DNA from: Halochromatium sp.
GTDB lineage: Bacteria > Pseudomonadota > Gammaproteobacteria > Chromatiales > Chromatiaceae
Length of the DNA: 64,000 nucleotides
Reading direction: 5' to 3'
NCBI GenBank assembly: GCA_010912705.1
Contig: POWB01000024.1
Location: 7,778-71,777 of the forward strand
Position 1 is the stretch's first letter. Each line of letters begins with the position of its first letter. A program made the position numbers and the translations under genes. Below, one piece after another: positions 8,987 to 14,071 of the stretch. Below the pieces are notes generated by a model. It searched no databases. It was not told the origin of the DNA and saw only the letters and a program-made list of their open reading frames with translations.

Positions 8987-9754
8987 ATGCATACGAACTG
9001 GGTGATGAACGGCAAGGGTGGGGTTGGCAAGTCGGTGCTCATCATGAACCTGGCATGGCTTTACGAGGCGATGAATCGCCCGCTACGCCTGATTGATGTC
9101 GATGACAAATCGAAACTCGCCGAATTTGTCGGTGCCGATGCCGTCCTCTCACTGCGTATCGGTGCCAGCGCGGATGAGCTACGCGCGGACCCTTCCCTGT
9201 CTTATAGCTACTGGGATCAACTGGCAGCGGAAATCCTGGAACAGGATACGGCCGTGGATTTCGGCGCGAACATGGATCGCCACATTTTAGAATGGGCGGG
9301 CAAGTCCGAGCTGGGTGAGTTGCTGCAGGAAAGCGGTGTCAGCATGGATATTTTTGTCCCGATCACCGCCGATCCTCTGGCGGTCCGGGCCGGTATTGAG
9401 GTGCTGGAGGCGGCGGCTGATCTCTTTCCAGCAAGTCGACGCATTCTAGTGCTGAACCGGGTCGCCGGCTCCTTCAATGCCTATGAAGCCACTCCGGAGT
9501 TCGAGCAGATCGCAGCGATGCGGACTGATGGCCTACTGGTGCTATCCTTAGAGACATGCATGAGTGAAGCCTGGACCGATTTCGAGCGGCTCAAGCTCAC
9601 CCCCCAGCGCATCCTGTCGATGAGTGCAGCAACCGTGGCACAAGAGACCGGACTCGGTATTCTGGCTGCAAAACGTGCGGCCGGGGATTATGCAGCCTGG
9701 CTGAAGCAGTTCCAGGAGGTCTACGCACCGCTGGTTCCGCATGACGGCGATTGA
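8987..9754 (+). CDS. Divergent ParA/MinD-superfamily P-loop NTPase
   Basis: Deviant Walker A NGKGGVGKS; LIDVD; AVDFGAN; VLNRVAG. Confidence 0.8.
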   Translation: MHTNWVMNGKGGVGKSVLIMNLAWLYEAMNRPLRLIDVDDKSKLAEFVGADAVLSLRIGASADELRADPSLSYSYWDQLAAEILEQDTAVDFGANMDRHILEWAGKSELGELLQESGVSMDIFVPITADPLAVRAGIEVLEAAADLFPASRRILVLNRVAGSFNAYEATPEFEQIAAMRTDGLLVLSLETCMSEAWTDFERLKLTPQRILSMSAATVAQETGLGILAAKRAAGDYAAWLKQFQEVYAPLVPHDGD

Positions 9755-10889
9755 TCGGATACCCCCGTTGCGTCGTCAGGTTGACGCGCACTGGCTTGCT
9801 GAGCTCAATGCTCAGATTGCTGATGGTCGGATGGCGACCGAAGCCGAAAGCGCAGAGATCCTAAGCTGGCTGCTGAAGCTCGAGCCAGCACAGCGCTGGT
9901 GCCTACTGCTGCGTCGAGCGCCCTGCCTGAAACGTCTAGTCGATGGTGATTATCAGCGCATCCTGACGTTGATGGTGGAGTTGGAGTCAGCCGCGCTGAT
10001 GGCCGCGCCCAGTCCCCCGCAGCCCTGTGTTGATCCGGCGGTCGAGCCAGTCGCTGATGCTGCGGGAGTCGCAAAGCCCTTGCTGCGGCTCGGTCTTTCG
10101 TCGCGCCTGTTCAGTGTTGACGCCCAAGGCCGGAGTACCTTTGATTCCGATCTCAGAACGCTGGCCGAGCAGATGTCCCGTGTCCGCGCGCAATCAAAAT
10201 TCTGGATCGCGCTGACCCTGATCTTGGCTGGCTCCACGGCGGCTGGAATTTGGCTATTCAGTCGCCATGAGGCGCATCCTCTGGAGGCGATGGTCCAGGA
10301 GATCGGCTCCCTCTGGGGAGCCACGGAAAGCCCTCAGCATGCATCGAAGGGCCTCGCTGGACGGCAGCACCAATCGCTGCTGGCGTTTCTGGCCTGGACT
10401 GAGCTGTCGAGGACATTGCAGACGGGCCAACCTTTCGTTGACGAGTTGGAGGCATTCAAGGCAGCCGGGACTGACTCGGCGCAGGTCACCGAGCTCGAAG
10501 CACTGGCCGAGCAAGGGGTTCCGGCCTCCTCGGTATTACTCATCGAGCTCAGTCATCTGAATGAGGCGTTGGACGCGCGCTATCAGGGAGTTTTGGAGCA
10601 TCTGCGCTATCGCCCCTGGTCTTACCCGCTGTCTGCTGAGTTGAAACAGCTAGAAACCCTGCGTCAGAGCGCAGCGAGCGGGCTTGCGCAAGCACAACAA
10701 GGCGATTGGCAGGCAGCCATTGATCGCCTGCGGGAGATCGAGCGGCCAGGGTATCAGGACTGGTGCGAACGGGCGCAGCGCTGGGCGACGGCGGAGCAAG
10801 CGATCACCGACCTGCGCCAGCGCGTCTGGTCGGAATTGACCACCGCTGCGACCGCTCAGGCCAAGCAGAGTGCGGGCCCGCCGCAGTGA
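9741..10889 (+). CDS. Bitopic membrane protein with mitofilin/Mic60 (COG4223)-like C-terminal domain
   Basis: TM FWIALTLILAGSTAAGIWLF, then LQTGQPFVDELEAF...LAEQGVP...L and GDWQAAIDRL...DWCERAQ...AEQAI. Confidence 0.65.
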   Translation: MTAIDRIPPLRRQVDAHWLAELNAQIADGRMATEAESAEILSWLLKLEPAQRWCLLLRRAPCLKRLVDGDYQRILTLMVELESAALMAAPSPPQPCVDPAVEPVADAAGVAKPLLRLGLSSRLFSVDAQGRSTFDSDLRTLAEQMSRVRAQSKFWIALTLILAGSTAAGIWLFSRHEAHPLEAMVQEIGSLWGATESPQHASKGLAGRQHQSLLAFLAWTELSRTLQTGQPFVDELEAFKAAGTDSAQVTELEALAEQGVPASSVLLIELSHLNEALDARYQGVLEHLRYRPWSYPLSAELKQLETLRQSAASGLAQAQQGDWQAAIDRLREIERPGYQDWCERAQRWATAEQAITDLRQRVWSELTTAATAQAKQSAGPPQ

Positions 10890-11428
10890 GCGGACTCCTT
10901 GTGTTTTCGGCCTCGCTCCTGGTTGGGGTGAGCATGGTCGGACTCCTGGGGTGGCGTCTATGGCGTGCACGCGGCTCCGGGTATCCTGCGACGCGGCTCC
11001 TCTCGGCTCGCGCGCAACAACTGATCGCTGAATCCCAGTACAGACCTCTCCAAAGGGCGCAAGAACTGGGCATTTGGCGACCGCCTCCGCGTCAGCGGTT
11101 GTTACATCGTCAGACCAGCCAGTGGCTTGCGGCAGCGACATCGATGACCGAGAGGCCATCGCATCCGAGGCAAATCATCGGCGATCAGGAGCAAGCTTCT
11201 CGGACCAGTATGCGGTCTTGGGACACCACTGAGCCCCAGCGTCTAGCAAACAGCAAAGGATCGGCGTTTGATCCAGCGCCTCCTGTTCAGGTCGAGCGCG
11301 TGAAAGCGCATCGCGTTGAGAGCGCGCAAGAGTCCCGTATCGGTCGAAAACGCTGCGGATTGGAAAGCCTCATTACCGAGATTCCCCCGAGCGCGGAGGG
11401 ACCAGCTCATGAATCGAACACTCGTTGA
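10886..11428 (+). CDS. Hypothetical protein with N-terminal TM anchor
   Basis: GTG 10886 overlaps the upstream TGA (GTGA coupling); hydrophobic LLVFSASLLVGVSMVGLLGW followed by basic residues; overlaps the next gene. Confidence 0.6.
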   Translation: MSGLLVFSASLLVGVSMVGLLGWRLWRARGSGYPATRLLSARAQQLIAESQYRPLQRAQELGIWRPPPRQRLLHRQTSQWLAAATSMTERPSHPRQIIGDQEQASRTSMRSWDTTEPQRLANSKGSAFDPAPPVQVERVKAHRVESAQESRIGRKRCGLESLITEIPPSAEGPAHESNTR

Positions 11429-13280: not shown

Positions 13281-13285
13281 GGTCC

Positions 13286-14071
13286 ATGCGCAGTCTCTGT
13301 ATCACCTCTGGTAAAGGCGGTGTTGGCAAGACAACCCTTGCCATCAACCTGGGGATTGCCATCGCTCGCAGGGGGCAACGGGTTCTGTTGATTGACGGTG
13401 ACCTAGGGATGGCGAATCTCAATGTGCAACTGGGCGTTAACCCTAGATTCACGATTCAGGACGTTGTGTGCGGGCGCAAGGCACTCAATCAGGTCATTTT
13501 GTCGACCGAGTATGATCTCGATCTCTTGCCCGGTGGGAGTGGGATTGCTGAGCTTGCCGATTTGGGTGAATCTGAGCGTCATAATGTGTTGCGCGGATTG
13601 GAAGAATTGCATGGCTATGACATCCTGATTATTGATACCGCGGCAGGGATCAGTAACAACGTTATTCGGTTCATCCTGGCGGCGGAACATGTCATCCTGG
13701 TTGCGACTCCGGAGCCTTCGTCCCTGACTGACGCCTATGGGATCACTAAAGTCGTTCTGGCGAAACAGCGCAAGGCCCTGAATCTGTTGGTGAATCGTGT
13801 TGCTTCTGCGGCTGAGGCAGGCAACGTCGTGAAGCGGCTGAACACGGCTGCGGAGCGATTCATGAGCTTCGAGTTCGACTTCATTGGCTATGTTCCGCTC
13901 GATCCACTCATTCAGGAAAGTATTATGAAGCAGAAGCCGCATTTGATCCTGCATCCCAGAGCCGCGAGTGCGCGCCAGATTGATGAGATGGCGATCCAAC
14001 TGACTGGCGGCGCGGGGAAAGACATCAAGGGCGGGCTGGGACGCTTCTTACGCACATTGCTAGGGCATTGA
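13286..14071 (+). CDS. MinD/FlhG-like ATPase
   Basis: [45 protein letters not shown]-terminal amphipathic helix [10 protein letters not shown]. Confidence 0.9.

Follow-up and report, generated by a model that had tools for sequence, protein, structure and literature searches.

Positioning systems of the ParA/MinD type, such as ParABS, McdAB and PomXYZ, pair an ATPase of the deviant Walker A kind with a neighbouring protein that carries a short basic peptide. The cristae-type protein Mic60, in which a single transmembrane segment (TM) precedes a mitofilin domain at the C-terminus, is encoded in Alphaproteobacteria in the order hemC-hemD-mic60-orf52. According to a preprint (bioRxiv 2022.06.14.496148) the mitofilin domain is confined to this class, and the number and size of magnetosomes are determined by Mic60 paralogs encoded in the magnetosome island of Magnetospirillum. 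Members of both groups stand side by side at positions 8987 to 14071 of the DNA analysed here, a window of 64,000 nucleotides from Halochromatium sp. (assembly GCA_010912705.1, contig POWB01000024.1), in a cluster of five genes, g1 to g5. The parts of this cluster are known families, and their combination stands apart from the described systems: compared with Mic60-Orf52, ParABS, plasmid TraK-TraL-TraM, FlhF-FlhG, MinCDE and the magnetosome gene cluster, it fits none of them, as had been supposed in an initial annotation made from the window alone. Neither the cluster nor a pairing of a cristae-type protein with a ParA-family ATPase was found in print, where supplementary figures or image tables might mention the cluster. 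Our tentative reading is of a machine anchored in the wall that holds the necks of large inclusion compartments and spaces them, the compartments being most likely calcium carbonate bodies.

A conserved core of four genes

All five open reading frames (ORFs) lie on the + strand as first described, including their overlaps, among them that of the GTG start of g3 with the TGA of g2, and the 5-nt gap before g5; deviant Walker A motifs are found in g1, g4 and g5. Conservation was counted in 29 genomes with fetched loci, where some misses are contig ends. g1 was detected in 27 genomes, the N-domain of g2 in 28, g3 in 25, g4 in 24 and all four genes in 23, so that the co-occurrence expected from the initial annotation holds across two classes. 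Its five-gene system with three ATPases shrinks to a conserved core unit of g1 to g4, as g5 is optional (4 of 29 genomes) and three ATPases are not obligatory. A reading as chance ORFs was rejected, since each of g1 to g5 is conserved as a protein in other genomes, which makes a real gene even of g3, the least convincing of the ORFs; an assembly artefact was rejected as well.

g1 adjoins g2 in 25 of the 27 genomes that contain it. The pairs g1-g2 and g3-g4 point towards each other in three Thiocystis genomes and away from each other in one of two copies of the genome G079; in Thiospirillum all genes are retained, spread over three sites. Because the pairs stay together when inverted or split, g1-g2 and g3-g4 are, judged by gene order, two sub-modules kept together by selection, and fusions of the ParA-TM part of g4 to a mitofilin domain link the two. 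A SPOR domain is encoded in 14 of the 29 genomes, fused to g4 in seven and as a separate gene in seven. The flanks of the loci are unrelated housekeeping genes, as surveyed for 58 flanking proteins of 10 loci, of which 35 could be named at a threshold of E 1e-30 and 23 could not.

Proteins of the two sub-modules

g2 (9741..10889, +) consists of a helical N-domain at about residues 14–90, a single TM at 156–174 that follows basic residues, and a mitofilin (Mic60) domain at about residues 209–370; by the positive-inside rule the N-domain is predicted to be cytoplasmic and the mitofilin part periplasmic, and the structure model is helical. The window's g2 (P0002) has no Pfam match of its own, yet the proposed bitopic, mitofilin-like nature is upheld by profiles. 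A profile of 14 g2 sequences matched 3,066 proteins at E 0.001, mostly over the C-terminal half; many of the 65 matches scanned among 150 listed also match PF09731, one being a HemD-mitofilin fusion. The ortholog P0080 exceeds the Pfam mitofilin cut-off (38.1 vs 27.4 bits), and a wider g2 profile matches the gene directly behind hemC-hemD in G387, a canonical locus separate from the cluster. A reverse profile built from 14 distant mitofilin-type proteins ranked g2 first of 45,801 ORFs of the host genome (E 2e-16; next 0.036), a test that is not fully independent because its 14 proteins came from the g2 profile search. An Atlas look-up placed mitofilin clusters first, at lead level only (0.82). 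By this profile evidence the C-terminal half of g2 is a mitofilin domain, while the N-terminal helical domain is its most conserved part and new relative to mitofilin proteins.

In its layout g2 thus resembles alphaproteobacterial Mic60 and the magnetosome-island paralogs, and as a dedicated copy beside a housekeeping Mic60 it recalls the situation of those paralogs, with both a canonical Mic60 and g2 present in G355. It differs from Mic60-Orf52 in its extra conserved N-domain and its linkage to ATPases, as well as in its occurrence in Gammaproteobacteria, where the preprint (bioRxiv 2022.06.14.496148) calls the mitofilin domain absent. Identity with the canonical system was ruled out, since neither hemC-hemD nor orf52 neighbours the cluster in the loci read. 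Mitofilin-domain genes without the g2 N-domain (L269-L275, L286, L287, L290) were also seen in G280, G411, G412, G413, G415, G416, G079 (two), G016 and G105, those of the first six genomes within a shared cluster of exported proteins, and G279 has a second g2-type gene with N-domain (L159:9218-10342) unlinked to g1.

g1 (8987..9754, +) encodes a soluble P-loop ATPase of 255 residues with intact KGGVGKS, DxD and Walker B motifs. The divergent ParA-like NTPase announced by the initial annotation has the ParA/MinD fold in its structure model (pLDDT 92), and turned out to be TraL-like rather than a plain ParA: the TraL profile matches residues 5-179 at E 2e-4 (20.8 of 360 bits, under the NCBIfam cut-off), and among full-length relatives plasmid TraL proteins score best, aligning end to end at 26–28% identity. 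g1 is the most conserved gene of the cluster (63–81% to orthologs); its signature lysine, DxD and Walker B do not vary across the 11 close orthologs compared. In a quick tree, from which the mis-cut rows L167 and L168 are to be disregarded, the operon rows group in a single clade (99), within which the purple sulfur copies make up one sub-clade (100), with the g1 of the window nearest to Thiorhodococcus and Imhoffiella. A metagenome scan yielded four true relatives among 80 loci, the remainder being generic P-loops. Apart from the cluster, most Azospirillales (110 of 130, matching at 1e-15) have on the chromosome a distant TraL-like family (L163-L170, L172, L174), whose genes lie between ftsE and moaB-like genes or else close to kdsA/eno, in the latter case behind a gene that presumably resembles TraK. 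Directly behind a lone g1 copy in G411 lies a gene for a MamB/MamM-like cation (CDF) transporter (L195:2726-3628), a single case outside the unit, and an ATPase that by eye looks like TraL ends the mam contig of G416 (L237:1694-2401).

The second sub-module starts with g3 (10886..11428, +), the small TM-anchored protein of the initial annotation, which has an N-terminal TM, a WRPPPR motif and a low-complexity tail ending in the motif basic-GL[ED][SA]L[IV] (window 11342-11374), which the pattern used detects in 21 of the 22 loci. The tail, RKRCGLESLI, resembles the start of the host ParB, KKGLGRGLDALL, and a loose pattern matches both among 6 places. The adjacent g4 (11409..13280, +) was correctly recognised as a ParA-TM-SPOR fusion: it comprises a Soj-like ParA domain (AAA_31, 1e-33), a conserved linker, one TM at 341-359, an acidic linker (39 D/E vs 10 K/R in 140 residues) and a SPOR domain (24.2 bits vs a cut-off of 21). 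SPOR domains bind septal peptidoglycan. The motifs FDSR and PRNVRL of solved ParA/Soj structures align to VQRVP and PLGDAV in g4, and taking these to hold the residues that matter for DNA binding, g4 is, on its alignment, devoid of the Soj-type DNA-binding arginines. The suggested placement relative to the nucleoid thereby loses its support. The signature lysine is kept in 5 of 14 ortholog rows, including that of the window, and lost in 9. In other genomes g4 appears as ParA-TM-DUF6118, in some cases accompanied by a separate SPOR gene, or as ParA-TM-mitofilin (ParA, linker and TM fused to the mitofilin domain in P0082, P0260 and the locus L276); DUF6118 ends four of the nine unfused forms.

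With a deviant Walker A ATPase next to a partner bearing a short basic peptide, the cluster resembles ParA/MinD positioning systems such as ParABS. It departs from them in that its g4 ParA domain is membrane-anchored, predicted to be wall-tethered and without nucleoid-binding residues, and in that two ATPases of different subfamilies are combined with a membrane-shaping partner. ParABS identity was ruled out, as no ParB is adjacent (none of g1 to g5 has a ParB domain, and the host parA-parB lies on contig C22) and g4 lacks the DNA-binding basic residues.

The likeness of g1 to TraL, together with the plasmid gene order traK-traL-traM (StbABC-type), could mean that a plasmid module for transfer or stability was domesticated here and tethers DNA (plasmids or additional copies of the chromosome) to the membrane. 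This agrees with DUF6118, which caps unfused g4 and elsewhere follows the TraA relaxase of a conjugative plasmid, and with the patchy spread and the insertion into an ABC gene. Unlike TraK-TraL-TraM, the cluster lies on the chromosome amid housekeeping genes. Neither in the unit nor among the 35 named flanking proteins was there a gene for a relaxase, an integrase, type IV secretion or DNA binding; all 58 flanking proteins taken together (23 of them unnamed) gave no DNA binder of the TraK type, oriT, relaxase or type IV secretion either, and 72,556 plasmids contained no close copy. With g4 lacking DNA-binding residues, SPOR replacing DUF6118 in seven genomes and a mitofilin domain that has no place in such a module, we regard DNA tethering as quite improbable, and identity with TraK-TraL-TraM or an integrative and conjugative element was ruled out, with no transfer genes found among these flanks and no terminal repeats.

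g5 (13286..14071, +), the accessory ATPase, is of the FlhG/MinD type and ends in a predicted amphipathic helix (moment 0.67), in agreement with the membrane-targeting helix first noted, a likeness to FlhF-FlhG and MinCDE that is not matched by linked flhF, minC or minE. The absence of parB, minC/minE and flhF next to g1 to g5 is likewise as first reported. g5 scores 122.6 against a MinD cut-off of 212.9 bits and the true host minD is located on contig C11; on these grounds MinCDE identity was ruled out, as was FlhF-FlhG identity for want of an flhF partner or flagellar context. That the cluster is a positioning module for flagella or magnetosomes is very improbable in our estimate. For flagella, g5 is present in G281, which has no flhA, the host (G000) has no flhF, and G224, G079 and G062 retain a separate flhF-flhG pair. 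The flagellar locus of the host (C1:142219-146685) reads flhB-flhA-fliA with neither flhF nor flhG, and a second flhA-like gene is found on C39.

A pole, septum or envelope-contact organiser, acting on cell shape, the division site or an inner-outer membrane tether and unrelated to inclusions, would account for the SPOR domain with its established binding of septal peptidoglycan and for the MinD/FlhG-like g5. Mic60 moreover binds BamA according to the preprint (bioRxiv 2022.06.14.496148). On the other hand, the host has its own minD and parA-parB elsewhere, 11 congeners live without the cluster, and SPOR occurs in only 14 of the 29 genomes, which makes such an organiser unlikely; no flagellar, division or partition module was found to explain the cluster.

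The locus in its host genome

The host genome, 4.19 Mb in size and 90% complete, belongs to a phototrophic Chromatiaceae genus. A Gld-type ABC permease module lies to the left of the cluster, and rarA and a gene for an EAL protein to the right. In the congeners G004, G005 and G008 (L313, L315, L316) the gap between permease and rarA is filled by a whole ABC-ATPase gene, of which the host retains the last 71 codons as left boundary (8464..8676, −), the operon replacing the remainder. As the cluster stands in place of most of a gene kept by congeners, it was probably acquired, a gain being likelier than a loss from the gene order at hand. No close intact copy of this ABC-ATPase was found in the host genome (best 36%), so the Gld-type transporter may lack its ATPase. 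Scans for promoters, terminators and repeats at the locus gave no signal above chance, and terminal repeats are absent. A second rarA copy near a contig end (C4:129358-131223, L311) shares 79-89% DNA identity with that of the window.

Distribution of the cluster and its possible cargo

Large calcium carbonate inclusions are described in PMC11773610 for magnetotactic cells of three lineages, namely a clade of Azospirillaceae to which the genus RI-112 belongs and whose sister group is Azospirillum, the gammaproteobacterial order CAIRSR01, and Chromatiaceae, in which Achromatium is placed. Lipid bilayers surround the bodies, their numbers are ordered per morphotype (CCP3 labels one of these), and ParA, FtsZ or MreB homologs are suggested for their positioning; no marker gene is reported. 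Genes for the intracellular carbonate bodies of Proteobacteria are not known so far, nor has any of the known formers been brought into culture (PMC11773610). In passages of two further papers, Achromatium bodies are located in membrane pockets (PMC6995342) and only metal transporters are named as candidates (PMC12710302).

The carriers of the cluster likely match these three groups at lineage level. Among Chromatiaceae, g1 was found in 10 of 251 sampled genomes (9 of 77 with pufM, 1 of 174 without) and g2 proper in 11 of all 380, while none of 11 congeners of the host has the cluster. Gammaproteobacteria at large gave 4 of 401, namely the host genome, two from the order of G280 and one distant match. 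This small order, presumably CAIRSR01, has parts of the cluster in 7 of 7 genomes, 6 of them with mamB. Azospirillales contribute 11 of 130 at E below 1e-130, 5 with mamB; one of them, L013, bears the name RI_112. The g2 ortholog P0077 bears the source name CCP3SC1_110017. The occurrence in likely carbonate-forming lineages suggests that the cluster shapes and places such compartments.

In the proposed carbonate machine, the mitofilin domain of g2 would bend or hold the inner membrane at the neck of an invagination, and its cytoplasmic N-domain might dock the soluble ATPase g1. In the second sub-module SPOR would tie g4 to the wall, while its ParA domain would face the cytoplasm but not read the nucleoid; the tail of g3 might contact this domain like a ParB-type peptide. 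The ATPase cycle would then set the position and number of necks, with g5 as an optional membrane-binding helper. A precedent is given by the Mic60 paralogs that govern the number and size of magnetosomes in Magnetospirillum. The trans-envelope layout already proposed in the initial annotation follows from the TM positions under the predicted topology.

Magnetosomes offer themselves as cargo in that, of 45 genomes picked by hand, 14 pass the MamB cut-off and 12 of these have the cluster (G079, G353-356, G359, G411-416), G079 being a Chromatiaceae genome with two cluster copies. A g5 paralog moreover lies by mam genes in G079 (52% to g5) and G412. Against magnetosome positioning, 17 of the 29 carriers have no mamB over the cut-off, and the core genes were not found in 15 mam-cluster stretches scanned. 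With g1 to g4 outside these clusters and not confined to mamB genomes, identity with the magnetosome gene cluster was ruled out. In two magnetotactic gammaproteobacteria a g5-family ATPase gene stands beside mam genes between feoB and a gene that by eye resembles a metal-dependent regulator (L225:13642-14475; L226:1874-2764).

The same machine might serve other cargo: it could place sulfur globules or some of the internal membranes in species where these have an ordered arrangement, such as the polar globules of Allochromatium warmingii. Ten carriers, the host included, are purple sulfur bacteria, gammaproteobacterial carbonate-formers also contain sulfur inclusions (PMC11773610), membrane pockets house sulfur globules according to the literature, and alphaproteobacterial Mic60 acts on photosynthetic membranes (bioRxiv 2022.06.14.496148). 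Cultured carriers include Thiocystis violascens DSM 198, Thiorhodococcus drewsii, A. warmingii and T. jenense, and A. vinosum is a non-carrier. However, 68 of the 77 pufM genomes are without the cluster, so that the chromatophore or sulfur-globule role first suggested does not hold as such; and the alphaproteobacterial carbonate-forming lineage cannot oxidise reduced sulfur (PMC11773610), yet 11 Azospirillales genomes carry the genes. We therefore hold this cargo to be improbable as well.

Several observations weigh against carbonate bodies as cargo and against parts of the proposed machine. The ten purple sulfur carriers count among them, as no report of carbonate bodies in these was found in the literature, where most subscription and old papers were out of reach; nor was an older report of a carbonate-bearing Chromatium found there. 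Achromatium, if among the 380 Chromatiaceae, seems to be without the cluster, since all 11 g2-bearing genomes of the family are accounted for, with 5 candidates scored per genome and many genomes incomplete. Two mamB genomes (G363, G364) have no cluster, and seven non-phototroph carriers (G279, G280, G352, G357, G358, G372, G373) no mamB over the cut-off. Neither a calcium pump nor a carbonic anhydrase was detected among the 58 flanking proteins, 35 of them named. As kin are not independent, the distribution pattern rests on about three lineages, and transfer among neighbours in a shared oxic-anoxic (chemocline) habitat could give the same spread. On the side of the proteins, the window's g2 has no Pfam mitofilin match, fold searches with its model against solved structures gave no significant match and generic helical bundles only, a profile of the g3 motif did not return the host ParB among 745 rows, and SPOR was not found in the alphaproteobacterial loci of the 29-genome set.

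Stated in full, the carbonate proposal would make the cluster the first genetic determinant of a large membrane-bound calcium carbonate organelle in Proteobacteria, assembled from a Mic60 paralog and from plasmid-derived and Soj-derived ATPases and moved between Alpha- and Gammaproteobacteria, with several cultured purple sulfur bacteria predicted to calcify inside, a claim that we consider doubtful. The cluster nevertheless offers a marker for carbonate bodies and moves the question into cultured type strains; if the carbonate reading is true, cultured purple sulfur bacteria would be the first culturable model. Whatever the cargo, the cluster couples a cristae-type protein to ParA-family ATPases, and mitofilin domains in Gammaproteobacteria bear on the use of this domain as a signature linking Alphaproteobacteria and mitochondria.

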